From positions 160,001 to 224,000 of IMG/VR virus record IMGVR_UViG_3300010429_000387: DNA of 64,000 bases; one strand, written 5' to 3'. Of the stretch, positions 7,812 through 25,498 are shown in pieces. The notes beneath the pieces are model-generated. The model ran no database searches and was not told the origin of the DNA. It saw nothing but the letters and a program-made list of their open reading frames with translations. Made by a program: the position numbers and the translations under genes. Source of the stretch: a virus (Duplodnaviria; Caudoviricetes). The first letter of the stretch is position 1, and each line of letters opens with the position of its first letter.

Positions 7812-8816
7812 ATGAACGACCCCAAGCACGCCCTCCTTGCCCGTGCCGCCTCCTTGGTTGAGAAGACTGCCGCCCCGATGCTGTGGAAGTACACAGACGA
7901 GGACGGGAAGGACTTCTATCTCACTGAGAAGCGGACTGGAACCGTCAAGTCTCCCTACTCAGGGAAGAGCTTCACTCCGAAGCCAACCAGGTCCTCCCTA
8001 TCGGACGTGGGCAAGGAGCTGAAGCAGGATGACGCCAAGGTGAAGGGCTCCTTGTGGAAGTACGTGGATGGGGAAGGCAAGGAGTTCTACCTTCCGGAGC
8101 GCCTCACAGGGACCCTCAAGAGCCCCTACAGCGGCAAGAGCTTCACCCCCAAGGCGGAGAAGTCCACCCTCTCGGACGTGGGCAAGGAACTGAAGCAGGA
8201 CGCCAAGGCAGAGAAGAAGGCCGCTGATGAAGACCCCGAGCAAGGCCAGCAGGGTCAGGACAAGACCGCTGCCCTTGCCGATTCGGACAAGAAGGTCGTG
8301 GACGCCTTCTACGAGAAGAAGCCAGCCGAGGGCAAGATGCTCACGACGGATGGCAAGGTTCTGGAGAAGATTGGTCTCGGTGGCAAGGGCTTTGCCAAGT
8401 GGGAGGGTGGCAAGATCGTGGTCGATGCAAGCCGTCCCCAGGTGAAGAACGACGAAGAGATCCTTCGCTACATGAAGAAGTCGATTCCGGCCGGGACTCT
8501 TGCCCCCCACTCCTTCTTCGGGAACTCCAAGAAGGCGACCTCTGAGGAGCAGTGGGAGCTGGCCTCGGAGATCATCAAGCAAGGGGAGAAGCACCCCGCC
8601 TTGGCCGTCATCAAGAAGCAGTACGACGCCATCCTTGAGGGGGTCAAGACAGCCGCCAAACGCTCTGCTGCCATGAAGCGGATTGGGGTTGGGCGAACTG
8701 AAGACCCCAACTTTGTTCTGATCGAGATCCGACCCGAGATCGAGAAGTTGAGCAAGGTCTCCGAGGCTGTTGCGGCACAACTCACTCAACGTCTCACTGG
8801 ATCGGGGAAGTGGTGA
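7812..8816 (+). CDS. Modular Lys-rich protein with a 57-aa tandem duplication; putative internal head protein
   Basis: ATG 7812 downstream of GAGGAG. Modules are separated by KTAA/KKAA/KTAA/KKAT. TGATG overlap with the next gene. Confidence 0.7.
   Translation: MNDPKHALLARAASLVEKTAAPMLWKYTDEDGKDFYLTEKRTGTVKSPYSGKSFTPKPTRSSLSDVGKELKQDDAKVKGSLWKYVDGEGKEFYLPERLTGTLKSPYSGKSFTPKAEKSTLSDVGKELKQDAKAEKKAADEDPEQGQQGQDKTAALADSDKKVVDAFYEKKPAEGKMLTTDGKVLEKIGLGGKGFAKWEGGKIVVDASRPQVKNDEEILRYMKKSIPAGTLAPHSFFGNSKKATSEEQWELASEIIKQGEKHPALAVIKKQYDAILEGVKTAAKRSAAMKRIGVGRTEDPNFVLIEIRPEIEKLSKVSEAVAAQLTQRLTGSGKW
7881..8208 (+). repeat. Tandem duplication, 171-nt period
   Basis: LWKYTDEDGKDFYLTEKRTGTVKSPYSGKSFTPK..LSDVGKELKQD (7881) versus LWKYVDGEGKEFYLPERLTGTLKSPYSGKSFTPK..LSDVGKELKQD (8052). 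Confidence 0.9.
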
Positions 8817-9541
8817 TGAACCCTCTCGCTTGGAAGACTCGGGTTGCACAGGCGTACCCCTTTGCACCTCAACCTCATCATCCAGGCGTGAGCCCTTCTG
8901 ACACACCCCCGGATGATGCAACTCACGTCATTTGGCAGGACCCGTCGTCCTACGACCCGTTCTTTCATGGACCCCCGTACCTGCCAGGAATGAAGGTCCG
9001 CATGGACAAGGCAGCCTCCTCCCGTTCTATCGTAGCCAAGGTGGTCTCGGCAGCAGGCCCGGACCTGTCCTCGGTTCTTGTGTTCCTCCGGTCCCTCGCC
9101 TTCATCCACCAGAGCCATCACTGGCTGACCTTCGGTGGTGACTACTACGGGGACCACCTGCTCTTCGAGCGTCTGTACGACCAGACCACAGAGGAGATCG
9201 ACCAGATTGCTGAGAAGGCAGTTGGGGTCGGGACCCCTGTTCAGAAGCTCCATCCTGGACTTCAGGCCAGCCTGGTCGCCCAAGTGGTGGCGAGCTTCTG
9301 CGGGAACGGGGTGACAGAAGGAGCGGGGGAGAGCCCCAACTCCTATGTGGAGACCAGCCTGAAGGCCGAAAGGCACTTCATCAACTGCATGAAGCAGATT
9401 GCCGAGGGGCTGAAGGCTACCGGCACACTCTCACGAGGGGTTGATAACCTCCTCGCTGGGATCGAAGACAAGCACGAGGGGCACATCTACCTCCTCGGGC
9501 AACGTTCCAAGGGTGACCCTTGGAAGGCTACCGGGGCCTGA
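8816..9541 (+). CDS. dps: Dps/ferritin-like protein with N-terminal extension
   Basis: HQSHHWLTFGGDYYGDHLLFERLYDQTTEEIDQIAEK matches the Dps ferroxidase signature (HW..G..H..E..D-x-IAE); C-terminal EDKHEGHIYLL. Confidence 0.8.
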   Translation: MNPLAWKTRVAQAYPFAPQPHHPGVSPSDTPPDDATHVIWQDPSSYDPFFHGPPYLPGMKVRMDKAASSRSIVAKVVSAAGPDLSSVLVFLRSLAFIHQSHHWLTFGGDYYGDHLLFERLYDQTTEEIDQIAEKAVGVGTPVQKLHPGLQASLVAQVVASFCGNGVTEGAGESPNSYVETSLKAERHFINCMKQIAEGLKATGTLSRGVDNLLAGIEDKHEGHIYLLGQRSKGDPWKATGA

Positions 9542-9575
9542 TACTCGGCATATCCAGATGAAAAGGAAGACCCAA

Positions 9576-10601
9576 ATGGCAAATGAATCGAACCAGACGT
9601 ATGGCGTCGGGGTGGATGTTGGTACCATGAACATCGTCTCCGCTCGCCAAGAGGGCGGAGTTGTCAAGACCAAGAGGGTGCGGGACGCCTTCATCGACCT
9701 CGAAGTAGAGGCGAAGAAGTCCCTCAAGATGGGGAAGGTCTCCTTCTACGAGGATGAGGACTCCGGTCAGCTCATCGTTCTCGGGGACTCAGCCCTCAAC
9801 ATGGCGAACCTCTTCAAGCGTGAAGTCCGGAGGCCCTTGGCGAAGGGCCTCATCTCTGCCGGGGAGCTAGATGCCCAGCGGGTTCTCTCCAAGCTCATTT
9901 TCAGCGTCCTGGGGGAGCCACTGACCGACAAGGAGCACTGCTACTACAGTGTTCCTGCTGAGCCCATCGACATGATGGACCAGGATGTGGTCTACCACAC
10001 CGAGGTCTTCCGTCAGATCGTGGAGGAGCACGACTACAAGGCTCACCCCATGAATGAGGCCATGGCGATCATCTACAGCCAGTGCCCAGACACCAGCTTT
10101 TCTGGCTTGGCAGTCTCCTTTGGCTCAGGGATGTGCAATGTTGCCCTGTCCTACCAGACGATGATGGGGTTGGACTTCTCCCTGGCCCGAGGTGGGGACT
10201 GGATTGACACCCATGCTGCCAAGGCCATCGGGTCCACGGCCAGTAGGATCTGCTCGCTCAAGGAGCGTGGTGGGTTCGACCTCTCTAGCCCACCAAGGGG
10301 GAATCGGGAGGCTGAGGCCATCTCCCTCTACATTCGTTCCCTCGTCCGGTACTGCCTGGAGAAGATTGCTGAGAAGGTTCGCCGTGAGCGCTCTGGGGCT
10401 GATCTGGAGGAGCCGATCCCCTTCGTTGTCTCAGGTGGGACAACCCTTGCCGAGGGCTTCATGACAGTCTTCCAGGAGGAGTTCCACTCTATCAAGAAGC
10501 GTGGGTTCCCCATTGCCATCTCGGAGGTTCGTCGGGCTAAGGACCCGATGACAGCGGTTGCAGAGGGGCTCCTTGTTCTAGCTATGCAGGAACACGAGTA
10601 A
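9576..10601 (+). CDS. Actin-like ATPase (MreB/ParM/MamK-type fold)
   Basis: Phosphate-1 GVDVGTMNI, YSVP, connect-1 NEAMA, phosphate-2 variant SFGSG, GGDWID, adenosine VVSGGT. RBS AAGGA precedes ATG 9576. Confidence 0.85.
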   Translation: MANESNQTYGVGVDVGTMNIVSARQEGGVVKTKRVRDAFIDLEVEAKKSLKMGKVSFYEDEDSGQLIVLGDSALNMANLFKREVRRPLAKGLISAGELDAQRVLSKLIFSVLGEPLTDKEHCYYSVPAEPIDMMDQDVVYHTEVFRQIVEEHDYKAHPMNEAMAIIYSQCPDTSFSGLAVSFGSGMCNVALSYQTMMGLDFSLARGGDWIDTHAAKAIGSTASRICSLKERGGFDLSSPPRGNREAEAISLYIRSLVRYCLEKIAEKVRRERSGADLEEPIPFVVSGGTTLAEGFMTVFQEEFHSIKKRGFPIAISEVRRAKDPMTAVAEGLLVLAMQEHE

Positions 10602-10605
10602 CCCT

Positions 10606-11799
10606 GTGTACTACTACCTGATCTCATCCCTGAAGAGGCGCCTGGTTCTGGAGCTGCAAGACAGCTTCAGTAAGCATCCTGTGTACGAGAAGGCAGTCCC
10701 GTATATCCAGAACAAGTACGCCTTCGATGAGCGACCTCAGTTCGGGATTGTGGTCAAGGGGGCCTCTGGGAACAAGGTCCAGCTCTCAGCCGAGAACTTC
10801 GTTGGCGTGGTTCAGAGCCACGTCATGTTGGCCTTCCTGGACACCCCCTCCTATCTGTTGGAGTGGGTTCGAGAGGACCTGAACACCATCAAGGAGAATG
10901 GGGATCAGGTCCCCGTTCAAGCGGGGGTCTACTACATCGAGTGCCTGACTGCCCCAACCAATCAGGGGGAGGCTGGCACCTTCGTGATAGACCCCCTTCT
11001 CACTGTCACCGATGAGCCCCTCCTCAAGGTGATCTCAGGGGTTGAGCGGACAGCCCACCTTCAGAATGAGCCGGTCTCTGGAACTCTGAGGCTCTGGGAG
11101 AACCGTAGGACCCCCCTTCTTGAGGGTCGGGACTACACTGTCGATGGGCAGGAGGTCACGATCCTCGGGAGGCTCCTCCCAGGGGCGGTCATCACAGCGG
11201 ACTACCGCTATGCTGCCCCGTCGATAGGCCCCATTGAGTGGAAGTGGAACACCTCGAACTGGAAGACTCTTCCAGGGGTGGTCATGGCCTTCGGGAAGAG
11301 GGGTAAGCCTGGTGACAAGCAGGCGGTGGTGATCTACGAGGACAGAGTTGATGTCGCCAACGCCTACGGGGGTCGCTTCGAGGCTTCCTTCGACCTTGAC
11401 GTGATTGCCCAGGACCCGATCCAGATGGAGGAGATGGCAGACTACGTTGTCATGTCTCTCTGGGGAGAGAAGAGAAGTGCCCTTTCATTCGAGGGCATCG
11501 AGATTCTTGACCTTTCAATGGGTGGTGAGGCAGAGGAAGCGTATGACGAGAACGCTGACCTCTACTACTACAATGCTTCCCTGTCTATTCAGTTGCAAGC
11601 GGACTGGGAGATTCACGTCCCCATGCCGTTTACAGTCAGTCGTGCCGTTGCTTTCACACGTTCTGCCGAGGCAGCCATGAACGCAGATCGTAGTGGGTAC
11701 GGAGAGTCAAGCATAAGGGCCTACTCTCAAGGTGGTCTCTTCTTGGCTACAGTCCCGGTCATTGTTGGTCGGAACAGCTCGTATGAGCGAATCACATAA
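10606..11799 (+). CDS. Probable tail terminator/completion protein with inserted Ig-like domain
   Basis: GTG start; upstream of the sheath. C-terminal FDLDVIAQDPIQMEEMADYV..YYYNASLSIQLQADW pattern resembles the terminator fold. Confidence 0.5.
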   Translation: MYYYLISSLKRRLVLELQDSFSKHPVYEKAVPYIQNKYAFDERPQFGIVVKGASGNKVQLSAENFVGVVQSHVMLAFLDTPSYLLEWVREDLNTIKENGDQVPVQAGVYYIECLTAPTNQGEAGTFVIDPLLTVTDEPLLKVISGVERTAHLQNEPVSGTLRLWENRRTPLLEGRDYTVDGQEVTILGRLLPGAVITADYRYAAPSIGPIEWKWNTSNWKTLPGVVMAFGKRGKPGDKQAVVIYEDRVDVANAYGGRFEASFDLDVIAQDPIQMEEMADYVVMSLWGEKRSALSFEGIEILDLSMGGEAEEAYDENADLYYYNASLSIQLQADWEIHVPMPFTVSRAVAFTRSAEAAMNADRSGYGESSIRAYSQGGLFLATVPVIVGRNSSYERIT

Positions 11800-11819
11800 G
11801 ATGAAGAAGGAATGAACCC

Positions 11820-12260
11820 ATGCCCAAGTACGTCTTTGAGTGCCAGACCTGCTCTACACGGTTCGAGCGTACCCTGAAGATGGGGGACCACCCGACTCAG
11901 CCCTGTCCTTCTTGCAAGGAGGATGCCCCTAGACTCTTTGCAGGTAATGGGTTTGGGTTCGGATTCTCTGCCCCTGCCAACGCTGCCCCAGCAAATACAG
12001 GGGTTCACAGTCAGGACTACCCGACTGCTGACCAGATTGTTGGTCGGAGTGCAGAGCAACGGTGGGGAACCTACAACAAGCGGGACGAAGTCAAGAAGAA
12101 GGTGCGTGAAGAGGGCAAGAGCCCAGCCCTGGCTCGCTTGGATGGAGATGGATACACCGAGTATTCGGCTATGGCCCCGGAAGAGCGAGGGGCTAGGGAG
12201 AAACTGGTGGACTATGCCGTCCAGATAGAGAAACAGCCCGAAGCAAAGCCACCCCAATAA
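11820..12260 (+). CDS. FmdB-family zinc-ribbon protein
   Basis: MPKYVFECQTCSTRFE...PCPSCK (MPxYxxxCxxC..CPxC). Confidence 0.8.
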   Translation: MPKYVFECQTCSTRFERTLKMGDHPTQPCPSCKEDAPRLFAGNGFGFGFSAPANAAPANTGVHSQDYPTADQIVGRSAEQRWGTYNKRDEVKKKVREEGKSPALARLDGDGYTEYSAMAPEERGAREKLVDYAVQIEKQPEAKPPQ

Positions 12261-12293
12261 AGTGTTGTTTTGACTTGTGTAGGGTAGAAACCA

Positions 12294-12448
12294 TCCGGTA
12301 CTCGCAGACCGGACACTAGATGTAGATCGACTCAAATCAGATTGCTGCCAGATGGTTGCCCTCTGGGGCCATCACAAACACCGAGGAATTTCCTCGGAAG
12401 ATCAGATCGGATGACATCCCCCAGAACTGATTTGAGGAGAATCGGATG
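12294..12448 (+). promoter_or_regulatory. Structured YAGAY-repeat leader or ncRNA upstream of the sheath gene (element 1)
   Basis: About 12 YRRAY-type pentamers. Hairpins at 12294-12313, 12351-12373 and 12381-12397. Ends at RBS GAGGAG and CGGATG start. Confidence 0.55.
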
Positions 12449-15400
12449 GCCCTCGGACCTTTCTCTACCTACGTACCCCCTGGCGTTTACTCTCGCACCC
12501 TGACCGAAGCGAACGTTGCGGCCCTAGTGGCTGGACTTCGCATCCCCGTGATCATCGGGGTCGGCCAAGAGGAGCTGGAACAGCTCGACCTTGAAATGGT
12601 GCGAGGCTCTTCTTCGACTCTCGATCAGCAGATCGTGAACGAGGATGTGACCCTCCGCTGGATCGTGGACGACACCAACCCCACGAACCCGACCCTTGGT
12701 GCGAACGACGGGACCAAGACCCGGTTCAAGGTTCGCAACTTCCCGTTGGTTGACGGGCAAGGCTTCGGCCGTACCACGAACGATGTCCGGTCTGTGACCG
12801 TGACCGTCGATGGGATCCCGGTGGCCGTTGGATCTGTTCGGGGCTCCTCTGGAGAGGTCATCCTTCAGGTTCCCCCTCCTTCCACGGCAGTGGTCCGATG
12901 CACCTACTTCTTCCATCGTGGTGACACGGCCTTCACGGATGACGTGTCGGACCAGGTCACTGCTACGGCTGCCACGATCATCACCCCTGGCTTCGAGCCC
13001 TACAACATCGTGGCTGGCTCCAACGACACCCTGAAGATCCGGGTGGACGGTGGAGTGGAGTACACGGTGACGTTCCTCCCTGGTTCTGGAACCACGGCGG
13101 CTTCGCTCAAGACCCAGATTGATGCCGGAGTCATTGCCGGGCTGTCTACCTCGGTCTTCGTCGCCAACGACGGAAGCAACCACCTTCAGTTCACGGCCCA
13201 GACCTCTATCGAGATCGGGACCGGAAGTGTCAACGGGATCCTCGGTCTCTCCAATGGGCAGAAGACCTCCCGGAACCAGAGCTTCAGGGTCTACCAGATC
13301 CCGATGGTCGATGGGACCTCTGGGGGCGTTACCACTACCGACCCCTCGAAGGTGGTGGTCAAAGTCAACAACGTCCAGGTGATCCCGACCTCGGTCGATG
13401 GTACTCATGGTCTTGTGACCCTTGGCTTCGCACCCCCTCCAGGGTCGAGCGTGGTCATCACCTACTGGGCCAACACCTGGCAGGACACCTTTGACTACCT
13501 CCCCAACACCCTGGTCACCAACGTCATTCGGGCGGGAATCTCCCCGAACCGTAGCGACTACATCCAGGGCCAGGACTTCGTGGTGAGCAACCCGTCTCCG
13601 GACGTGTCGATCATCCACTGGGGTGCCAGCTACTCCGTCTCCTCGACCCTCAGGACACCCGGTGCTGAGCCTCTGGATGAGTCTCAGATTATCCCGACGA
13701 TGGTGGACGACAAGCTGTGGTTGGCCCCTTGCACGGCCTTCGTGGACACCTCGGTCATCCCGGCCAGGGCAAGCACCACGGTCTTCGTGCTCCCCGAGGT
13801 CCCCACCACAGGGAACGGCCGTGACACGGTTCTCGGGACCCAGACCTACAGCAGCATCGCCAATAGCCGGATGGACCTCGTCACGAACCGTCCGGACCTG
13901 GTGATTGCCCGAGTGGGCAGAACCCTCCGTGATGCCCTCGGTCGCCCAGCGGCCAAGGTGGTTGCGGTGGATGGGTCTTCCAAGAAGATCGTCCTCAAGG
14001 ACCCGCTTCCCCCGGACTGGAACGTGTATGCCACGTTCAACTACAGCCGTCTGGTGGATGACACCTATATCTTCACCAACAAGACCCCAGGCCCCATCGG
14101 CCAGGGTCAGTACGAGGTCTTCTCCTCGCTCTTCAACTCGAACCTCTATCAGGTTCGGTTCGGGAGCAAGGGTGGTGGTCTTGTTGAGACCGTCCAGTGG
14201 CCCCGTGGTGTCGAGCAGGTTCCGGATGCCATGCACGTTGGTGGCACCCCGGTTGGCGAGACCGTGACTGTGACCTTCGGTCAGGCAGCCGCTACGAATG
14301 CGGTGTTCACGAACAAGGGTGCCCAGCCCTTCTCGTTCTACAGCCCTTCTTCGGCTACCTGGAGGACCCTCCTCAACGGGAATCCGGTGGTCAGCACCAA
14401 CCTGGTGACTGCCTCCCGAGCCTACATGGTCAGCAAGCCGGTCAAGCTGTCTGGTGGAGGGAACATCACCATCACCAGTGCCTCGAACGACCTGTTCAAC
14501 CTCACCATCGACGGTGTGGACATCGACGTTTCACTGACCCCCGGAACCAGGACCCCGGCCCAGATCGCTACAGACATCAATGCAGCGATTGATGCCGACC
14601 CGGCCTTCTCCTCGGTCACGAACAACTACATGTGTACGGCAATCCCTGGCCCTGGGACTGGCTACACCTTCTTCGTGATCCGTAGCTACTCGACTCCGGG
14701 TGCTCTCCCTGGTGGCTTCGATCACCAGAGCTACGTCCGGATTCGTCAGGGAACGGCGGAAAGCACTCTCGGGTTCACGACCTTCCAGCGTGCTGACGGT
14801 ACCACGGGTGCAGTCAACAAGCCTGCAACCCTCGTTGGGGCCAATGCGGAGGCTTTCGTCTTCACAAGCGGCCTGAACGATGTGCTCAAGGTCCGGATCA
14901 ATGGGGTGGACTTCCAGGTCACGATCAACCCCTCTTCGACCACGGCAACCCTGGTGGTGGCGGACATCAATGCCGTCATCGCTTCTCAGGGCACTGCCTC
15001 GGTAGGAACTCTGGGCAACCTGAACCACGTCCGTATCACGAGCAACATCAACTCCGAGCAGTCCTCGGTGGTGATCCTCAATGGTTCGGCAAATGCCACT
15101 CTCGGCTTCAGTGAGGGTGACTTCGCCAGCCAGTCTCGGGTCAACGTCCAAGAGGTGGTCAACCGCCTCATGGCTACCCCGAACATTGCAGTCACCTCCT
15201 GGGGTTCTGCTGGAAGCCCTGGAACGGCTCCGACTGCCAACACCACGGGTGCGGTGGTCTACCCGACAACCATCGCTGGGCAGGTCTACTTGACCATCGA
15301 GTCCCTGGTGGTGGGTTCTGCCTCCTCCATCGCCTTCGGGACGGGTGCCAACTCGGCCTTCAACATCCTCACTGGAACCCAGATCACCCCTGGGACCGAT

Positions 15401-16765: not shown

Positions 16766-16782
16766 TTCGTAAGTAGGCTTGG

Positions 16783-16823
16783 AAACGGCCGTATCTCTTC
16801 GGAGGTACGGCCGTTTTCGTTTT
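16783..16823 (+). terminator. Intrinsic terminator after the sheath gene
   Basis: AAACGGCCGTATCT-C(TTCG)G-AGGTACGGCCGTTT stem with a cUUCGg tetraloop, followed by TCGTTTT. Confidence 0.85.
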
Positions 16824-16839
16824 ATGACCCTCTGTGAGT

Positions 16840-17598
16840 ATGGCCTACGTCCCGTCCACTATCTATCGAACGGTGTACGACATCAACTTCACTGCCGAGA
16901 GTTCCCAGACTTTCAGCGCTGATCAGAACTACACCATGGGCGGGGCGACATGGGTGAAGCAGGGGACCTCTTATGAAGACTCGGCCGCTTCTGTTGGCTC
17001 CGGGGGCCTTGTCATACGCCCAAACCAGACTTCAGATTGGAACATTACGGGAAGCGGACGCAACCTTCCTATGTTGAAGCTCCCTATCAAGAACGCATTC
17101 AGTGGGTTCTCCATGCCAAGTAGGCTTAGGGTCTGGGCCTACAACCCAAGCAATGATGCCGCCAACAACTATGAGGATGCGGTCATCACCGTTGGGTCTG
17201 GGGATTCAACTCTTGAGTTTGTTGTCAAGAGAGGACGGGGTCTGAGTGGGAATGGACTCTCACCGGCCTACACGTCTACAGTCGTCAGGGGTAACAACTA
17301 CCTAGACAACGTGATGACCCTAGGAACTTCAAATGATGTCATCGTGTTTGACATTCCAAGCCTGTACATGGCGAACTTCAAGGTGTACTACGGCGCATAC
17401 ACTGCGAACGGTTGGCCTGGACTTGGATCGATGAGTTTGGCCTTGCCTTGGGACTACTACGCCAGCAACTTGGTCTCAGCCTCTATCCTCACTGCTTTGG
17501 CCTCTGATAAAGTCTCAGTGTGCCTAGGGGCTCAGAGGTCTGGTTCTGGGACAGCCTACACAGTCAGGTTTGACCGACTCCGGATCGATGTGGGCTAG
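16840..17598 (+). CDS. Hypothetical beta-rich (lectin-like?) protein
   Basis: ~252-aa Ser/Gly/Asn/Tyr-rich ORF with lower GC than the sheath; alternative GTG start at 16834. Confidence 0.55.
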   Translation: MAYVPSTIYRTVYDINFTAESSQTFSADQNYTMGGATWVKQGTSYEDSAASVGSGGLVIRPNQTSDWNITGSGRNLPMLKLPIKNAFSGFSMPSRLRVWAYNPSNDAANNYEDAVITVGSGDSTLEFVVKRGRGLSGNGLSPAYTSTVVRGNNYLDNVMTLGTSNDVIVFDIPSLYMANFKVYYGAYTANGWPGLGSMSLALPWDYYASNLVSASILTALASDKVSVCLGAQRSGSGTAYTVRFDRLRIDVG

Positions 17599-17626
17599 AA
17601 TCCTTCTATGCAGCGGAGCAAGTGAC

Positions 17627-18850
17627 ATGTACACCAATCGGACTGCCCGAGAGCTTCACGCCAGGCTTCTCCTCTCTATGTCAATGGAGGATGCCAAGGA
17701 AATCCTAGGCTTTCCACCTGGGTCAAGCCCTTCCCCTTCGGAAGTAGCCAGGGCGTACAAGCGCAAGGCCCTGGAGAACCACCCTGATCGGGGTGGGGAC
17801 CCAAGGAAGATGGTGGAGGTCAATGTTGCCAAGGAAGTCTTGGACGGGAAGTCTCGTGGTGACTTCGTCCGGCAGCAGAACGAGGAGGAGAAGAAGAGGC
17901 GTGAAGCCCTTCTGAGGGACCTCGCTACCATCGACCGGGCCAAGAAGCAGGCCGTTCAGGCTATGGCAAACCACTCTCTGTACGTGTTTTCCTTCCGGAT
18001 TCGGGAGCCCTTCCGGGTTTTCCTTATGGATGACTTCGCAGAGGTCCTGGACTTGGTTCATGACCATGCTGAGAAGGGACTCAAGAAGCCCGCCTCCAAG
18101 GATGACGAGAAGGCCCTGAAGAGTGTCCTGGGGGTCATTAAGGAGATGAACGGGATCACCCTTCGGATTGCCAGTAAGTACCGTGGGCTCTCCAACCCTG
18201 GGGAGATCATGCTCTCCCAGCTTGAGGACCGGTACGAGAGTGGCGTGGCTATCCAGAAGATGATGGAAGACCTCTTCGCCAAGTCGAGGCAACTGAATGG
18301 CCTTCTGATGACGGGCCTTGGTCCGACCTATGAAGATGCCATCTCCATCCCGGATAAGGTCTGTGATCGCTACCTGAATGCCCATTCTTGGTTGGAGTCC
18401 TACATACGGGACCTCTCATCCTTCGACCCGAGTGACCTTCAGAAGGTACTGAAGAAGGTCGAGGAGGCTGTGACCGAGGTGCTCGACATCCTGAAGGACC
18501 GGAAGGTGAACCCCAGGGACTTCGACATCTCGCCCAACTGGCAGAGCTGGGACATCCCGGACAGCTTCGACCTTGCCGAGGTGGCAATCCGAAACCCAGT
18601 CAAGCACGCAAGCCAGGACGACGTGATTGCCCTTCGTGTGGCAGCCAGATACAAGGAGGCCGCCCCAAGAGGTAAGGCCCAGGTAGCCATCATGGAGTAC
18701 CTCAAGAGCGGAGATGAGGTACAGCTCACCGACATGACCCGACACCCGTCCTTTCGAGGGGTTCACTTTTCGGCCATCCAGTCGGCTGCTGAAGCCCTGA
18801 AGAAGCAAGGGCTGATCGAGTACAACGGCAAGACTCTCAAGAAAAAGTAA
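17627..18850 (+). CDS. J-domain (DnaJ-type) multi-domain protein
   Basis: AKEILG..EVARAYKRKALENHPDRGGDPRKMVEVN with intact HPD. RBS GGAG precedes ATG 17627. Small HTH-like C-terminal module after RVAARYKEAA. Confidence 0.85.
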   Translation: MYTNRTARELHARLLLSMSMEDAKEILGFPPGSSPSPSEVARAYKRKALENHPDRGGDPRKMVEVNVAKEVLDGKSRGDFVRQQNEEEKKRREALLRDLATIDRAKKQAVQAMANHSLYVFSFRIREPFRVFLMDDFAEVLDLVHDHAEKGLKKPASKDDEKALKSVLGVIKEMNGITLRIASKYRGLSNPGEIMLSQLEDRYESGVAIQKMMEDLFAKSRQLNGLLMTGLGPTYEDAISIPDKVCDRYLNAHSWLESYIRDLSSFDPSDLQKVLKKVEEAVTEVLDILKDRKVNPRDFDISPNWQSWDIPDSFDLAEVAIRNPVKHASQDDVIALRVAARYKEAAPRGKAQVAIMEYLKSGDEVQLTDMTRHPSFRGVHFSAIQSAAEALKKQGLIEYNGKTLKKK

Positions 18851-18891
18851 CCTCTTGGTTGAAAGAACCTCCCCTGGTCCGTTGTAGAGCT

Positions 18892-19233
18892 ATGACGACC
18901 TCGAACTACTCCAAGACGGACTGGGAAGTTGACCTGACCTCGGACCTCGTGTCCACGGGCTACAATGAGGACGGCGAGGAAGTCATCCGGGAGTGCTTCT
19001 ACGTGACCCTGACGAACAGCTTCGGGGACCGATACCGCTCGAACTTCTCGTCTTTCAACAGGAAGGACGTTGAGGTTCATGAGAAGAAGGTGGCTCGTCA
19101 CCTGGTCCTCGGTTGTTCACCTGTGGGCTCCTCCAAGTGGACCCCGCACTACCCGGTGTACGGTTCACCGGCATATTCGTCTTACGGGGCGGCAGAAGAG
19201 GTCGCCTGGGAACGCAAGATGGATGCAGCATGA
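18892..19233 (+). CDS. Hypothetical phage protein
   Basis: 113-aa ORF with matching codon bias, ending YPVYGSPAYSSYG..VAWER. Confidence 0.65.
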   Translation: MTTSNYSKTDWEVDLTSDLVSTGYNEDGEEVIRECFYVTLTNSFGDRYRSNFSSFNRKDVEVHEKKVARHLVLGCSPVGSSKWTPHYPVYGSPAYSSYGAAEEVAWERKMDAA

Positions 19234-19289
19234 TTGATGCTCTTTGGTTGGGGGTTCTTTCTATGAGCCCCCACTGAAGATACCTGGAG

Positions 19290-22200
19290 ATGGACATGGC
19301 CTTGAAGATCGACGAACGGCTCCTCGTTGCAGCGGCAGACGGTACCCCCAAGAATGACGACCGGGAGACCGCTCCAGGCCGTCTGCTGGACCTCATGGTC
19401 CTGGTGCTGGCAATCGACGCCTACACCATCGGTGGGGACGACCAGCAGTTCCTCGACAAGGGCCTGGCTCTCTACAGGATGCACCGTAGTTCCATTGAAG
19501 AGGCTGCCAAGAAGCACCTCGACTCACTGATGGAGCGTCCTGATGCGGGAACGGTCAGTGCGAAGTACCGACTCATGGAGCAGGTGGACCCGAGCAAGAA
19601 GGCTCGGTTCATCGAGGAGTTCATGGTCTGGATCAAGCGCCGGACCACCCTCATGCGGGACGTGTTCCCCGGCCGGACCTATGCCAATGCTGCCAAGGTA
19701 GCGGCTGCCTGTGAGGAGCCGGATCTCGAAACCAGGATGCAAAAGCTGGCGGTTGTTCCGACCAGCTCAGGTCTTTCCTCGATGTTCAAGTGGGTCCGCA
19801 AGGGTGCAGAACTCTTGGGAGCCCCAGCCCCGACGGTCGAAGCCATCTCTGCCCAGGTCGAGGGTGCTCAGGCGATTGCTGAGGAGATGAAGGAAGCTGA
19901 CCGGAAGATCAATGTGGAGCCGGTGGGTTCCCCGACTCGGGCAGCCCTGGAAGACAGGAAGCTCGACCTGGCTGCTGACCTCAATGAGGCAGTCGAGGAG
20001 TCTGACGACCCTCAGATTGTTGGGTCAGCAGCAGCTAGCAAGTTTGCGGCACCTTCCAGGACGGCTCAGAAGTTTGGCCTGACTCCCGAGCAGGAAGACG
20101 TGATGCGCTCGATGGGGAAGGTGGTCATCGCTGCTGGAGCAGGTTCGGGCAAGACCCAGACCCTTGTTGCCACCATCGCCCACCTCGTTGAGGAGAAGGG
20201 CTACATGCCGAGCCAGATCATGGCTTGCTCCTTCACGGTGGCTGCCTCCACTGAGCTTGAGGCTCGTGTGACCGAGAGGGCAGGGATCCATGGGGCCAGG
20301 ATTGGCACCACCCACTCGATGGCTCGTGAGATCATCACGAAGAACCGACCTGGCCTGGCTCAGGCAGTCAAGAACACCAAGGCAGCGGACAAGCTCTTCA
20401 AGATTGCCATGAAGCAGGTCCCTCTGGACCCCAAGGCTCATGAGAAGGCTCTGGAGCAGAACAAGGATACGATGGCTCGGATCGAAGCCATCCCTGGGTG
20501 GCGTTCGATTGAGATCCTACGCTCCTTCCATGACCAGCTCGCAAGGGGTCGGACCCTCTCTGAAAAGCAGATGGCCGTCATCCCCAAGTTCGAGGGTCGT
20601 GGAGGTGGTGGCTACGGGGGTGGAGGGTACCGCCGTCGGTATGCTGAGGAAGAGGTACCGGCTGTCAACGCAGTTCGGGCAGCTATGTCCCAAGCTCAGC
20701 TCCCCCTCCCAGGGGTTCCGGTTGTTGCCGCTGACTCGGATGCCCCTAGTGACGACCGGATCAGTCCCTACTGGACCACTCCCTGTGGTCAGTGGTTCAA
20801 CATTGGCAAGCCCATCGTGGGTGATGACCAGAAGCCGATGGGGGAGAAGAGGGCCAAGCTGGCCGTCGAGAACTTCAAGAATGCGGGTCAGACGGTAGAG
20901 CAGGTCCGGGCAGAGATGGGTGATGACCATCCTCTGGCGGCTCTCTATGGGGCCTACGAATGGCTCAAGCAGAACGACCCGGTGATGGCCCCGGCTATGG
21001 ATTTCACCGATCAGCTCGTTGTGGCTCTGGACATCCTGAAGAACGACCCGGCAGCTCGGGCAGCCGAACAGCGTCGTTTCAAGGCAGTTCTGGTTGATGA
21101 GGCTCAGGATCTCAACCAGATCCAGTTCGAGATGTTCCAGATCCTTGGGGAGAAGGCAGACCTTCTCGGCTTCATTGGGGATGACAAGCAGAGCATCTAC
21201 GCCTTCCGTGGCGCAAAGCCCAAGAACTACGTGGATTTGTCCAAGCAGGAGGGCTTCCAGACCAAGCTCATGACGATGAACTTCCGCTCTGGGAAGGCCA
21301 TCGTCGATGCTGCCAACAAGCTCATCGCCCACAATGCGGATCGTCAGATCCCGATGACTTGTGACGCTGACGTGGAGCGCAAGGGCATGGGGGCTATCCG
21401 GACTCGGGATGCAGCCGACCATGAGGATGCAGCCGACCAGGTAGCTCAGGAGATCAAGGACTCGTGTGATGCCGGGGACTCCCCCAAGGACTTCGGGATC
21501 CTGGTCCGGAACAATGCCGAGCACGACGCCTACACCCTGGCCCTCTTGGTTCGGGGCATCCCCTACCGCCTTCTCAAGCGTGGTGATGGTGGGTACTTTG
21601 GAAAGCCACTGGTCCGGGCTCTGACTGCCTGGATGCGGTTGGTGGTTGGCGGGAGCAACGAAGCCGTCAACGAAGCCGTTCTTGATGCCCACATGACCCC
21701 TGGCTTCGGGCTGGACAAGCAGTTCGGTGCGGGCCTCTCTCGAAGTGCTCGGGGTCAGAGCTACCTCGACTACATTCTAGGTGGGAACCCAGTGTACTTC
21801 GGGAAGGCTGACTGGATGAACAAGCGTGTGGCTGAGTATGCCAACGCTATCCGGACTGTTTCCGCTGTTGGGGGCATGGACTCCCCCTCTCTCATCCGGG
21901 CCATCCTGAACATCAAGGGTCAGAAGGGAACCTTCGAGGACGCCCTGATGAAGTTGGTGGATGAGGATGACGTGATCGAGGAGGACGGTGCTGAAGCCGG
22001 TGAGGAGGCCATCCGGAATGCGGCTATGGCACCTCTTCGCCCTCTCATGATCATGGCTGAGAACTTCAAGGACCCAGAGAATCTCCTTGGGTTCATCGCT
22101 AAGATGAAGGCGGCCAACGAGAAGGCCCAGAAGAAGAACCCAGAGGACAAGGAAGACTGGAAGGAGCCTGCTGTTCTGGTTGGCACCGTCCACGGGTGGA

Positions 22201-22805
22201 AGGGCCTCCAGGCTAAGCACTGCTATGTGTGCATGGCGGGAGGGGTCTTCCCCAACTTCCGGAGTGACGAGAAGGAAGCAGCAGGGGACGAGACCGCTTT
22301 CGATGAAGAGCGTCGTCTAGCCTATGTCGCCATCACCCGAGGCGAACAATCGGTGACGGTCATGGCCCCCCAGAAGAACTACCTCGGGAAGCCTGCCCCT
22401 ATGTCCCGGTTCATCGCTGAGGCGTGTATTCCAGTGGTGGGTGAGAAGGCCCAGGCTGAAGCAGAGCGAGGGGACGCCCCGAACGATGAGCAGCTTGTCT
22501 TTGCTGACCCAAGTCAGGACCAAGCAGGACCAAACGACAGGACCGCAAGCACGATCAGGTCAGGTCTTTTCCAGAGGGCCTTCCTGGCCTTCAGCCATGG
22601 TATGGAGCCTTCGGCCTTCGATGACCTGGTGGAGTCGGACCTTCTGACGGACCCGACGATTGGTACCTCCGGACCTTGTGGGGGTGACTGCGAAGGCGGC
22701 TGCAAGGATGGTGGCGAGTGTGAAGGCGGCTGCAAGGGCGGTTGTGGAGACAAGGCATCCGAGGATGGGGTGACCTGCCCCTGTGAGTACGACTACGCTC
22801 GGTAG
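19290..22805 (+). CDS. uvrD: UvrD/Rep/PcrA-like SF1A DNA helicase with N-terminal, internal and C-terminal extensions
   Basis: LTPEQ, AGAGSGKT, SFT, GTTHS, VLVDEAQD, GDDKQSIYAFRGA, NFRS, ILVRNN, TVHGWKGLQ, EERRLAYVAITR. Confidence 0.92.
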   Translation: MDMALKIDERLLVAAADGTPKNDDRETAPGRLLDLMVLVLAIDAYTIGGDDQQFLDKGLALYRMHRSSIEEAAKKHLDSLMERPDAGTVSAKYRLMEQVDPSKKARFIEEFMVWIKRRTTLMRDVFPGRTYANAAKVAAACEEPDLETRMQKLAVVPTSSGLSSMFKWVRKGAELLGAPAPTVEAISAQVEGAQAIAEEMKEADRKINVEPVGSPTRAALEDRKLDLAADLNEAVEESDDPQIVGSAAASKFAAPSRTAQKFGLTPEQEDVMRSMGKVVIAAGAGSGKTQTLVATIAHLVEEKGYMPSQIMACSFTVAASTELEARVTERAGIHGARIGTTHSMAREIITKNRPGLAQAVKNTKAADKLFKIAMKQVPLDPKAHEKALEQNKDTMARIEAIPGWRSIEILRSFHDQLARGRTLSEKQMAVIPKFEGRGGGGYGGGGYRRRYAEEEVPAVNAVRAAMSQAQLPLPGVPVVAADSDAPSDDRISPYWTTPCGQWFNIGKPIVGDDQKPMGEKRAKLAVENFKNAGQTVEQVRAEMGDDHPLAALYGAYEWLKQNDPVMAPAMDFTDQLVVALDILKNDPAARAAEQRRFKAVLVDEAQDLNQIQFEMFQILGEKADLLGFIGDDKQSIYAFRGAKPKNYVDLSKQEGFQTKLMTMNFRSGKAIVDAANKLIAHNADRQIPMTCDADVERKGMGAIRTRDAADHEDAADQVAQEIKDSCDAGDSPKDFGILVRNNAEHDAYTLALLVRGIPYRLLKRGDGGYFGKPLVRALTAWMRLVVGGSNEAVNEAVLDAHMTPGFGLDKQFGAGLSRSARGQSYLDYILGGNPVYFGKADWMNKRVAEYANAIRTVSAVGGMDSPSLIRAILNIKGQKGTFEDALMKLVDEDDVIEEDGAEAGEEAIRNAAMAPLRPLMIMAENFKDPENLLGFIAKMKAANEKAQKKNPEDKEDWKEPAVLVGTVHGWKGLQAKHCYVCMAGGVFPNFRSDEKEAAGDETAFDEERRLAYVAITRGEQSVTVMAPQKNYLGKPAPMSRFIAEACIPVVGEKAQAEAERGDAPNDEQLVFADPSQDQAGPNDRTASTIRSGLFQRAFLAFSHGMEPSAFDDLVESDLLTDPTIGTSGPCGGDCEGGCKDGGECEGGCKGGCGDKASEDGVTCPCEYDYAR

Positions 22806-22827
22806 CCGGTCGGTGTAGACTCCGACC

Positions 22828-23679
22828 ATGCAGGTGTCGGAGCTTCAGTTCCAAGTTCTCGTTGACCCAGGGCTCCCCTCGATTGTGAGTGGAGCCCTGT
22901 GCTTTGAGACCGGAGCTACTCGGGAGCAGTTGGGTCCTGGGGTCTACGAGCACCATGGTGCTGGGTTCCGACCTGAGGACCCTGGAGCCCTCACTCGGTT
23001 CTACGAGGACCTTCTCCTGGGAACACCCCTACCCCTCGTCTTTGCCACCAAAGAGGTTCGTGGGCCTGACACCCTCCTGGCGATAGCTCTCTTCCTGCAC
23101 CGGGAGCTTGCCCTTGTCCCAGCCGCTACAGGGTTGGTGGCCGGGGTAGACCTCTACCATCGTTGGGGGCCTCCACTCCTTGCCCATATCGAACCGGCCC
23201 TTGCTGGGTTCCTCCGGACCTTCGACAAGTTCTTCCCCTCCAACCTGACCAAGAGGGAGCGTGGAGAGAGGATCGGAATGGGTGCTCAATGGGTTCGAGA
23301 GTTCCTTCTGGAAGGGAACCTCCCCAACCTGGGGACTCCTCTGCCTGAGGTTCGAGTAGTGGACATTGGGTCTAACAGCTTCGTTCTTGCTGAAACCATG
23401 TCCCCCTCCGTTGAAGCCTGGGAGGTACTGTACAGATCCGGGCACCTACGAGGGGTCCTTCTGGGACCTGATCTTGAGGGTCTTCGAGTTGTTCTTGCCT
23501 CCAGGAAGCACGAGCGAGCATGGCCTGGGATGGGCAATGCTGTGGTGTTCCTAAATGACTTGGAGGGTCTTTCTGGGGGTCAACCCGAGTGGACCTGTGA
23601 TGGGTCCTATCTACGTTCACCACCTGTGGGCTCACGGATCCTCCCCTCCCACCTGCTGGAAGTATTTTTGAGAATGTAA
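22828..23679 (+). CDS. Hypothetical protein, possibly a degenerate DHH-like fold
   Basis: 283 aa; YEHHG and GPDTLLA resemble DHH-type motifs, but key acidic residues are unclear. Confidence 0.45.
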   Translation: MQVSELQFQVLVDPGLPSIVSGALCFETGATREQLGPGVYEHHGAGFRPEDPGALTRFYEDLLLGTPLPLVFATKEVRGPDTLLAIALFLHRELALVPAATGLVAGVDLYHRWGPPLLAHIEPALAGFLRTFDKFFPSNLTKRERGERIGMGAQWVREFLLEGNLPNLGTPLPEVRVVDIGSNSFVLAETMSPSVEAWEVLYRSGHLRGVLLGPDLEGLRVVLASRKHERAWPGMGNAVVFLNDLEGLSGGQPEWTCDGSYLRSPPVGSRILPSHLLEVFLRM

Positions 23680-23699
23680 GGGCAACCCAGGGGGTTATC

Positions 23700-23906
23700 G
23701 TGTTGCCAGTGACTATCGACCAAGAGACACGAGAAAGTCGTGTAGTTGAGAGACTTTACCCTCTTACCGAGGACGGGTTGGACCTTCTGAGTGAGGTCGA
23801 TGCTTTACCCCCTCCCCCGCTAGTTCCAGGTTTCGCCAGGGACACTATCCCTTGTCCTCCCCCGGATCCCAACGAGTGGACCTCGGATGAGGATCCGGGG
23901 TGGTGA
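23700..23906 (+). CDS. Small acidic Pro-rich hypothetical protein
   Basis: 68-aa ORF filling an intergenic gap; GTG start. Confidence 0.4.
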   Translation: MLPVTIDQETRESRVVERLYPLTEDGLDLLSEVDALPPPPLVPGFARDTIPCPPPDPNEWTSDEDPGW

Positions 23907-23935
23907 ATCTTGTTGTCCGTCTTCTGCTCTAGGAG

Positions 23936-25498
23936 ATGGCACCCTCACTCATCACAGTCGCTACCGACGGGTTCCGGGACTACGTTGACCTCCCAGACGG
24001 AAGGCAGCTCAATCTCGGGTCTGTTTCGGTCCTGAAGTTGGTGACCTCTCTTGTCTCCAGCTCGACTGACTGTCGAAAAGCACTCGACGGATTCCTAAGC
24101 AAAGGTTCGACCACCATCAAGGTTGACCTGCAAGCTCTGGAGGGGCTTTTGCGTCCTCGCAGGGCACGATGGGCGGGGCATGGTGATCCGTTTATCCCTG
24201 CTGATTCTCGTCTACACTTCAGAGGCGCAAGCATGAACCCAGTCCAAGCTATCCACACCCACATCGACGAAATCGAGAGGCATGTCGCTGCGCTTCAGCA
24301 AGAAGCTGGGCAGGGACAAGAGCAACAGGAGAAGTCCGCTGGCCTTCACAGGGTCGTGGCGGCACTTCTGGGCCTGGTGACTCAAACGGAGGCCGAAGGG
24401 CTCAGCGCTAAGCTGTCAGCCATCGAGTCCACGATTGATGCCATCAACAAGGCTGGCTCTGCCCCCAAGGGCTCGGTTGAGACCCTTCGTGGCCTCACTG
24501 CAAGCCTCTGTGAGGTGGTGACAGGCAAGACTGCTGCTGTGGACGAGGATGCCAAGCGGGAACTCGAACTCTACATGGAGAACGAGTCGAGGCTCTATCG
24601 TCAGAAGCAGGACATCATCAAGAACATCATGCGGAAGATGAAGGGTGGCAAGTACAACCACTCTCTCGCCCCCAAGTTGTGGATGTACTGGGTTGACGAA
24701 GGCGCCAAGATGTACGTCCGTGAGTTCGGTGGGGACGTGAAGACCATGTTCCCGAAGCAACTTCGTGAGGAGTTGGCGAAAGAGATCGCCAACGACCAGA
24801 AGAAGCTCATCGAGGATGGGGAGTACGACAGCCTCAAGGTCGCTGCTGAACAGGATTGGTCAGTTACAGCCTCCGTCAAGTGGAATGAGGGGGATGGGTC
24901 CTGGACAGCTAATGGCGAGGGCGACTTCATCAAGAAGGTCACCATCACAGAGATCAAGGGTCCTGGGATTCCTCTGTACGTGCTGAAACTCACTACTGAG
25001 AAGGGTGAGTTCAAGTACAAGAAGGAGTACAAGAAGCTCAATGACGCCAAGAAGGATGGTGAGACCTGGGTGAAGTCTGATGAGGACGGGGCAAGCCTGA
25101 TCCTCACAGACTTCAAGAAGGTCGCTTCTCAGGGACAGGACCAGCAAGGTCAAGACGAGCAGGAGGCCCCTGAAGAGCAGGCCAAGCAGGCTCAGGACCA
25201 ACAGCAAGACCAGCAAGGGCAGGACAAGGAAGCCTCCCTCCGAATCTCTTCTGAAGAAGTTCTGGTGATCAACGAAGCTCTAGCACACTCGGTCATGGCG
25301 AAGGTCGAGAGTGCTCTGAAGGTGGTCGAGGCAAGTGGACTGCCCGGAACTCAAGTTGCCAAGAAGGACTTGAACACCATCTCGATCAAGCTGGCAAAGC
25401 TGGTTGAGGCGTCGGACCTCAAGAACCCGAGCCTCCGATCCGACCTCACGAAGCTCGCCAGCATGGCAGACAAAGTTCACTCTCACTTCGCCGCCTGA
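23936..25498 (+). CDS. Modular protein, putative internal head polyprotein
   Basis: RBS AGGAG. Domains are separated by KSAG, KTAA, KVAA, KVAS, KQAQ, KEAS and Gln-rich linkers. Confidence 0.7.
   Translation: MAPSLITVATDGFRDYVDLPDGRQLNLGSVSVLKLVTSLVSSSTDCRKALDGFLSKGSTTIKVDLQALEGLLRPRRARWAGHGDPFIPADSRLHFRGASMNPVQAIHTHIDEIERHVAALQQEAGQGQEQQEKSAGLHRVVAALLGLVTQTEAEGLSAKLSAIESTIDAINKAGSAPKGSVETLRGLTASLCEVVTGKTAAVDEDAKRELELYMENESRLYRQKQDIIKNIMRKMKGGKYNHSLAPKLWMYWVDEGAKMYVREFGGDVKTMFPKQLREELAKEIANDQKKLIEDGEYDSLKVAAEQDWSVTASVKWNEGDGSWTANGEGDFIKKVTITEIKGPGIPLYVLKLTTEKGEFKYKKEYKKLNDAKKDGETWVKSDEDGASLILTDFKKVASQGQDQQGQDEQEAPEEQAKQAQDQQQDQQGQDKEASLRISSEEVLVINEALAHSVMAKVESALKVVEASGLPGTQVAKKDLNTISIKLAKLVEASDLKNPSLRSDLTKLASMADKVHSHFAA

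Follow-up and report, generated by a model that had tools for sequence, protein, structure and literature searches.

A candidate protease cut-site motif and docking tag in head and accessory proteins of an uncultured phage-G-like megaphage

Introduction

Giant phages carry proteins in their heads. To our knowledge, T4 and the phiKZ group, both of which use Glu-specific proteases, are the only phages for which the code that loads and processes such proteins is understood. Here we describe a candidate code of a different kind in the window, by which we mean the whole 64,000-nucleotide stretch (bases 160001-224000) of the IMG/VR virus record IMGVR_UViG_3300010429_000387 that was analyzed. Its elements are a short motif, [KR]-x-A-[AS], which we predict to be a cut site of the head maturation protease, and a second element, [KR]-V-A-x-R-[YFW], which is a putative docking tag. 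One or the other recurs in otherwise unrelated proteins, including a Dps-like, putatively ferritin-fold protein, a J-domain protein, a UvrD helicase and two modular proteins encoded between positions 7812 and 25498. Coordinates refer to the window unless they are marked as genome positions.

In T4, the capsid-targeting sequence (CTS) of the internal proteins IPI-III and Alt is removed by the prohead protease gp21 (PMC9026906). By analogy, the system that we propose would share with it a short peptide that loads unrelated proteins into the procapsid and a head protease that cuts the scaffold or core as well as itself and removes that peptide. The two differ in their particulars: gp21 cuts after Glu at L/I-x-E, whereas [KR]-x-A-[AS] has no Glu; the tag described here is of another sequence than the CTS and is found at N-termini, C-termini and internal joints; and the protease has no match to Pfam Peptidase_S77. 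Moreover, cleavage is known for T4, whereas here it is predicted.

The prohead proteases phiKZ gp175 and SPN3US gp245, from phages with inner-body or ejection proteins, recognize the motif A/S/G-x-E, with cleavage C-terminal to the Glu (PMC10052503, PMC5694885). The presumed likeness to these phages lies in a giant-phage head with many non-structural proteins, in multi-site cutting at a three-residue motif both in propeptides and between domains, and in a protease that cleaves itself. However, no sequence relationship of cargo or protease was detected, and the candidate cargo here comprises Dps, UvrD, topoisomerase IB and a J-domain protein. Judged by its sequences, the present system is outside the Glu-specific specificity class of T4 gp21 and phiKZ gp175, though it would follow a similar logic. 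The cargo-loading peptides of Family 1 encapsulins offer a further parallel, in that a short portable peptide sends unrelated enzymes, including ferritin-like ones, into an HK97-fold shell; yet these peptides lie at the C-terminus and bind to the shell protein without an intermediary, no protease removes them, and they have no sequence similarity to the elements considered here.

Phage G (Donellivirus gee; gp14 portal, gp19 protease, gp27 major capsid protein) has a homologous major capsid protein (MCP) and protease, an enrichment of K-x-A-[AS] in the open reading frames (ORFs) of the head module, and an aligned site before the catalytic domain of the protease. Its motif-richest ORFs are concentrated in the head module (3.9-17.7 kb). 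Among them are the portal gp14 and the protease gp19, with three sites each, at aa 18, 55 and 625 of gp14 and at aa 43-46, 248-251 and 274-277 of gp19. It differs in its AT-rich genome, owing to which Ala is scarce, in its Firmicute host, and in that no full RVAxRY tags of the same pattern were found there, only a KTAARY-like N-terminus in gp13. This gp13 (NC_023719.1, 11937-12203), encoded just before the portal, begins K-T-A-A-R-Y-A-A-S, such that a site-like string overlaps a tag-like one, and its position parallels that of a tagged 129-aa protein described below. Proteomics of phage G particles list helicases and a ferritin-like protein (PMC12484599), a content that by analogy is weakly compatible with the cargo idea. 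To this background we add a conserved Dps leader, a site following the UvrD core, a mapping of linkers by AlphaFold2 (AF2) and a site at the boundary of the protease catalytic domain that aligns with phage G.

Results

An order-specific motif in exposed linkers

The source of the window is an uncultured phage-G-like megaphage, represented by a single 407,078-bp record with direct terminal repeats, and the window lies in its late structural block. ORFs were taken from longest-ORF calls, with the scaffold gene added by hand, and relatives were collected from IMG/VR as 80 loci around sheath homologues and 80 loci around MCP homologues.

Three genes of the window have a strong excess of [KR]-x-A-[AS] over the expectation from their own composition: gene 7812 (ORF 7686/7812-8816) has six copies against 1.0 expected, gene 23936 (23936-25498) six against 1.2, and the J-domain protein gene (17570-18850) five against 1.0. 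These rank second to fourth for motif excess among the 463 ORFs of the genome, and eight of the top 12 enriched ORFs fall in the 115-186 kb block that runs from head to tube (hypergeometric p = 2.5e-5). The free position x is most often Thr. The Dps-like protein of this genome has a single strict site, and UvrD, taken over its whole length, has no enrichment (6 against 3.4 expected in this genome; 1.44x in relatives).

Among relatives, the window families have observed-to-expected ratios of 3.8x for gene 7812 (29 sequences), 4.7x for Dps (44) and 3.6x for gene 23936 (38), and the excess is equally large in homologues that are less than 50% identical (3.6-4.9x). The head-module families extend this picture, with the scaffold reaching 6.0x in 63 homologues, the highest of all, followed by p248 (4.95x), p317 (2.9x) and p340 (2.8x). 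The control families gave 0.65x (volactin), 0.48x (tube), 1.1x (g22828), 1.4x (a zinc-ribbon protein), 1.7x (g10606) and 0.07x (p207). Over the pooled carrier families, the forward motif stands at 3.15x against global shuffles and at 2.94x against shuffles inside 12-residue windows, while the reversed motif and three permutations of the same composition stand at 0.8-1.4x. By these sequence comparisons and the models described below, [KR]-x-A-[AS] is a functional, conserved short linear motif of exposed linkers that is order-specific and goes beyond composition.

These results bear on an initial annotation of the stretch, which had been made from its letters alone and had proposed that a K/R-x-A-(A/S) motif at domain boundaries, together with an RVAxxY element, marks capsid cargo processed by a protease. 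Every motif position of that annotation that we checked was correct (KTAA 7863, KTAA 8262, RVAQAY 8840, KHAS 18602, RVAARY 18635, RTAS 22539, KTAA 24527, KVAA 24836, KVAS 25118 and KEAS 25226). It had named as refuting an absence of linker enrichment beyond Lys/Ala composition; the shuffles, the permuted-motif controls and the relatives all point to an enrichment beyond composition instead. It had also suggested a search for the motif in the propeptides of capsid and scaffold beyond the window, and the scaffold, with its 6.0x excess and three conserved sites, is where it is densest. The placement at domain boundaries holds for the conserved sites, which lie in linkers or joints, whereas three of the listed instances, KTAA279 and RSAA284 in gene 7812 and KLAS506 in gene 23936, lie inside confident helices and are unconserved.

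The scaffold and the head protease

The head module is ordered as terminase, topoisomerase IB, three small paralogues, a 180-aa ORF, portal, a 1062-aa K/E-rich protein, p248, a 548-aa protein, a Q-rich scaffold, the decoration-like p207 and the MCP. The scaffold (genome 131149-132348) has four motif copies in this genome, three of the form [KR]-T-A-S plus KKAA. Three of its sites recur in fixed contexts among the 52 homologues longer than 300 aa: FNHPE-[KR]xA[AS] in 38, [KR]xA[AS]-xRT[VI]G in 49 and L[PAG]-[KR]xA[AS] in 29. A tblastn search for scaffold homologues in cultured phages found none. As a separate observation, long Leu-rich antisense ORFs outcompete the scaffold gene in a longest-ORF call, and they may mislead the automatic annotation of relatives too.

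The 548-aa protein matches PHROG 18299 (2.6e-11) and shares 31% identity with phage G gp19 in the blocks that contain the conserved His and the S-M-G-C serine; on this sequence evidence it is the head maturation protease. The Pfam models S77 (Peptidase_S77) and S78 match nothing in the genome. Of 44 distinct homologues, 35 have [RK]-x-A-[AST] immediately before the catalytic domain, at the place of K-T-A-A in an alignment with phage G gp19, and the protein further conserves [KR]-A-A about 35 residues past the catalytic domain and K-x-A at residues 5-7.

The Dps-like protein and the UvrD helicase

The Dps-like, putatively ferritin-fold protein (8816..9541, plus strand) matches PHROG 3636 'DNA binding protein' (7.8e-9) and PHROG 858 (5.3e-5), and its match to Pfam Ferritin (19.2 bits, 1.2e-3) is under the cut-off of 24.5. 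It has a conserved leader of about 68 residues that has at the N-terminus a degenerate copy of the putative docking tag, R-V-A-Q-A-Y (8840..8857, plus strand), continues with the core G-P-P-Y-L-P (8969..8986, plus strand), which is unique in this genome and found in 39 of 44 homologues, and is followed by K-A-A-S (aa 65-68; 9008..9019, plus strand) between the leader and the ferritin core. In 31 of the 39 homologues with G-P-P-Y-L-P, [KR]xA[AST] lies within 22 residues after it and before the ferritin core, with diverging flanks and with a linker between G-P-P-Y-L-P and the site that varies in both length and sequence. From this pattern of conservation, K-A-A-S at 9008 is the best single candidate cut site of the window. 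In one relative (L019), the Dps homologue opens with a complete RVAARF tag and then has KSAA. A tblastn search with the Dps-like protein matched a single uncultured record. Separately, the ends of several proteins have another short motif in common, D-P-(x)-W-K-[AVT]; examples are the Dps C-terminus (window 9515), the N-terminus of p340 (genome 137615), the N-termini of Dps in relatives, and homologues of gene 7812.

The UvrD/Rep SF1 helicase (19290..22805, plus strand; PF00580 3.8e-51, 174.8 bits; PF13361 3.8e-26, 92.8 bits) is extended at its N-terminus by about 260 residues and ends in a Cys/Gly-rich tail. Its R-T-A-S (aa 1084-1087; 22539..22550, plus strand) separates the helicase core from this variable C-terminal tail. 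At this post-core position, [KR]-[TE]-A-[AS] or a one-residue variant occurs in more than half of about 40 distinct segments, in a region that is otherwise unalignable.

Two modular proteins with sites at their joints

Gene 7812 (7812..8816, plus strand) encodes a modular protein that matches no Pfam or PHROG family. Its AF2 model, which like that of gene 23936 was built on an alignment of homologues, has an N-terminal helix, two WKY beta domains, a disordered Q/D/E-rich linker and a C-terminal helical hairpin. Three of its plus-strand sites fall at these joints. K-T-A-A (aa 18-21; 7863..7874) is at the end of the modeled N-terminal helix and precedes the first WKY domain, and K/R-x-A/S-A is found before LWKY in most homologues. 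A second K-T-A-A (aa 151-154; 8262..8273) ends the GQQGQD linker, where the predicted local distance difference test (pLDDT) score is <50 at aa 143-155, and is aligned with KVAAL, VTAAL and KTAAL of relatives. K-K-A-T (aa 240-243; 8529..8540) ends a low-confidence stretch (pLDDT <50, aa 230-239) before the C-terminal hairpin and is partly conserved, as KNAS, KSAT or RRAS.

Gene 23936 (23936..25498, plus strand) is modeled by AF2 as beads on a string, with five folded modules and low-confidence linkers, and it has no Pfam, PHROG or PDB fold match; Foldseek searches of the PDB with the models of both genes returned nothing below E = 0.07. Sites 96, 395 and 431 lie in low-confidence linkers and sites 198 and 301 at joints of confident modules, all on the plus strand. 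R-G-A-S (aa 96-99; 24221..24232) is in the linker after module 1 (pLDDT <50 at aa 86-101), with [RK]G[AST][SG] in close relatives. K-T-A-A (aa 198-201; 24527..24538) sits at a module boundary between helices H178-196 and H204-216, where GKT..AAVD is conserved. K-V-A-A (aa 301-304; 24836..24847) marks another boundary, followed by residues 305-309 with pLDDT <50, and K-x-A-[AS]-[ED] is found before a variable insert in 7 of 14 distinct aligned segments. K-V-A-S (aa 395-398; 25118..25129) lies in a long disordered Q-rich stretch (pLDDT <50 at aa 366-435) and is unconserved because the surrounding region is variable. K-E-A-S (aa 431-434; 25226..25237) ends the QQGQD linker before a C-terminal helical bundle, with GQDKEAS, GKDKDAS and KKEAS in relatives.

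In alignments, relatives of both genes gain or lose whole modules between conserved sites. Four relatives of gene 7812 (L072, L074, L080 and L011) display, as judged by eye, extra WKY repeats and a module like a segment of the head-module protein p340 (genome 137609-138631). Such sharing with p340 is found only in the relatives of gene 7812, and a BLAST comparison of the motif carriers within this genome revealed no paralogous modules; it matched just a second J-domain gene and, weakly, p340 with UvrD (E = 4e-4). The sequences suggest a shuffling of modules between head-side and sheath-side genes that is bounded by the motif.

The J-domain protein and the second element

The J-domain protein (17570..18850, plus strand) is organized as an HPD-containing J domain (PF00226, 28.6 bits against a cut-off of 27.8), a helical middle, a site - tag - site arrangement and a small C-terminal domain; no Gly/Phe or zinc-finger region was found in it. 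The arrangement, all on the plus strand, consists of K-H-A-S (aa 345-348; 18602..18613), the putative docking tag R-V-A-A-R-Y (18635..18652) and K-E-A-A (18653..18664) directly after the tag. A homologue from one relative (L002) has its C-terminal end right after KNAS, a spacer and RVASRF. Beyond the end of the window, at 92851-94149 in window coordinates, a second J-domain protein is encoded that is 68% identical over the J domain, with KVARSW at its N-terminus and KSAS near its C-terminus.

In this genome, [KR]-V-A-x-R-[YFW] is found at the N-termini of the 129-aa protein p129 and topoisomerase IB, both in the head module, inside the J-domain protein between its sites, and in a fourth ORF far downstream, all with the same heptad core. 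The topoisomerase IB is of the poxvirus type (genome 120348-121415; PF01028, 5e-27), is encoded directly after the large terminase and begins with an RVAARY tag. Across the fetched relatives the element occurs 49 times against 9.8 expected (5x); 19 of these 49 distinct tags lie within 25 residues of the called start, and 11 are preceded by a site at a distance of up to 14 residues, the background rate being 4.4% (p = 7e-6). A literature search for the tag strings found no paper. The RVAxxY element that had first been noted is real and clear in the J-domain protein, but it is better written as [KR]VAxR[YFW] and is degenerate in Dps, and RRYAEE of UvrD, which had been counted as a further case, is not one.

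Setting of the window and its neighborhood

The G+C content of the window is 58%, and nearly all of its genes are on the plus strand. The region of interest spans late structural DNA from the neck genes to the tail tube and encompasses gene 7812, the Dps-like protein, a volactin-type actin, a 1439-aa sheath-like protein, the J-domain protein, the UvrD helicase, gene 23936 and a tube-like gene. The volactin-family actin-fold protein (9576-10601; PF25216, 6e-66), encoded amid neck and tail genes, has no [KR]xA[AS] site, in keeping with the depletion of its family. The segment 16834-19233, between the sheath and UvrD, is a variable islet: genes 16834 and 18859 have no homologue in the 80 sheath loci of relatives, and the J-domain protein gene between them has only two.

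The MCP (genome 133118-133990, 290 aa), whose gene is located about 26 kb upstream of the window, has a match to Pfam Phage_capsid and is related to phage G gp27 (PDB 6WKK; phmmer E = 1e-60; 38% identity by tblastn), while the nearest cultured relative is Tunturiibacter phage Tunturi_5, with an MCP identity of 48%. More than 580 MCP-related stretches were matched in IMG/VR among the matches listed. Across the 80 best relatives (L085-L164) the MCP is 92-99% identical, and the sheath of several of those records is only 55-85% identical to the present one; going by these identities, the capsid protein is under far stronger constraint than the tail. Elsewhere in the head module, three tandem paralogues of 172-188 aa (genome 121370-123001) lie upstream of the portal gene, with one 180-aa ORF in between.

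Discussion

On the evidence of the sequences and the structural models, we posit, with a probability of roughly 0.55, that [KR]-x-A-[AS] is the cut site of the head maturation protease and that the second element is a docking tag for proteins loaded into the procapsid. The protease would be assembled into the procapsid together with the scaffold, and would trim itself at the motif before its own catalytic domain. Its further targets would be three conserved sites of the scaffold and the domain joints of the accessory proteins. The helix-forming [KR]-V-A-x-R-[YFW] probably docks accessory proteins on an interior component of the procapsid, and, since it often adjoins a cut site, it could be removed after loading. 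The Dps leader, with its degenerate tag, G-P-P-Y-L-P and K-A-A-S, would act in the same manner. The Dps-like protein, UvrD, the J-domain protein and the products of genes 7812 and 23936 would then be procapsid-loaded proteins that are freed as separate domains.

A wider proposal is that this two-part code, comprising a docking helix or the Dps G-P-P-Y-L-P leader and a cut site, loads a changeable set of enzymes (Dps, UvrD, topoisomerase IB, the J-domain co-chaperone and modular effectors) that are trimmed in the capsid and co-injected with the DNA as a protection and repair kit. We regard this fuller scenario as possible and put it forward tentatively.

Several points weigh against these proposals. 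We infer the cutting, the role of the head protease as its enzyme, the Ala specificity named in the initial annotation, the position of the scissile bond, residence in the capsid and ejection; for this phage and its relatives alike, the case for cleavage and packaging is made up of sequence and model evidence, from which the scissile bond cannot be fixed. As the relatives share ancestry, simple counts among them are not independent events, and the J-domain protein has only two homologues in the fetched loci with which its sites can be compared. The MCP, which is the usual substrate, lends no support: its KTAA at aa 16 lies in a protein that is 93-99% invariant, and the aligned segment of phage G gp27 is not a motif, so that an examination of an MCP propeptide speaks neither for nor against cleavage. 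The portal of the clade is not enriched (1.4x), and the Dps-like ORF of phage G has no strict site. Finally, the phage G particles were purified on sucrose gradients only, and the enzymes listed there may be contaminants (PMC12484599).

The strongest competing explanation retains the head protease as the enzyme that cuts the motif but treats the window proteins as transient assembly helpers, much like the scaffold. These would act in or on the procapsid, be cut to pieces and driven out ahead of DNA packaging or in its course, and never reach the next host. That the strongest carriers are the scaffold and its neighbors fits such a role, as do the J-domain co-chaperone and the actin-like neighbor, which would suit assembly, and several internal sites per protein are more like scaffold degradation than the removal of a single propeptide. 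However, Dps and UvrD each keep one conserved site that spares an intact enzyme core, which is better explained by maturation than by disposal, and it is hard to see what a helicase, a topoisomerase IB and Dps would do in assembly. We therefore consider this explanation rather unlikely.

The motif might instead be read by another protease or unfoldase, of the ClpX/ClpP type or from the host, for turnover or activation in the cytoplasm that is unrelated to the capsid. Phage G has ClpXP, which was detected in its particles (PMC12484599), and a cut after A-A would be expected to give an ssrA-like C-terminus. Yet the motif is densest, and its sites are best conserved, in the scaffold and in the head protease, where a site marks the edge of the catalytic domain, and the enriched ORFs cluster in the head module of both this phage and phage G, which makes a cytoplasmic reader improbable.

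Equally, the motif could be a non-proteolytic docking or hinge peptide that binds a common partner, such as the scaffold, portal or a chaperone, with no cutting at all. Conservation and a position in linkers would suit any short linear motif, and the adjacent RVAxRY tag is most simply seen as a binding helix. Processing sites, however, are typified by what is found here: a protein may have as many as 5-6 strict matches, of which several fall at module joints, and the protease has one at its propeptide boundary. Four residues with one free position would, moreover, by themselves be a weak determinant of binding; we give pure docking little credence. An accident of composition in Lys/Ala-rich linkers is hardly credible and was rejected, for, short as the motif is, chosen after these very proteins had been viewed and unconserved in some of its listed instances, its 2.9x excess survives local 12-residue as well as global shuffles, reversed and permuted motifs stay at 0.8-1.4x, the excess repeats in homologues less than 50% identical and not in control families, and conservation is position-specific.

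If cut site and docking tag are what we propose, the finding would have consequences at several levels. The tag would offer a portable means of loading foreign proteins into large capsids. Unexpected cargo would be named in the form of a ferritin-like DNA protector, a helicase, a topoisomerase and a co-chaperone. Virion cargo would become predictable from metagenomic genomes by a sequence code, across a large and mostly uncultured clade.

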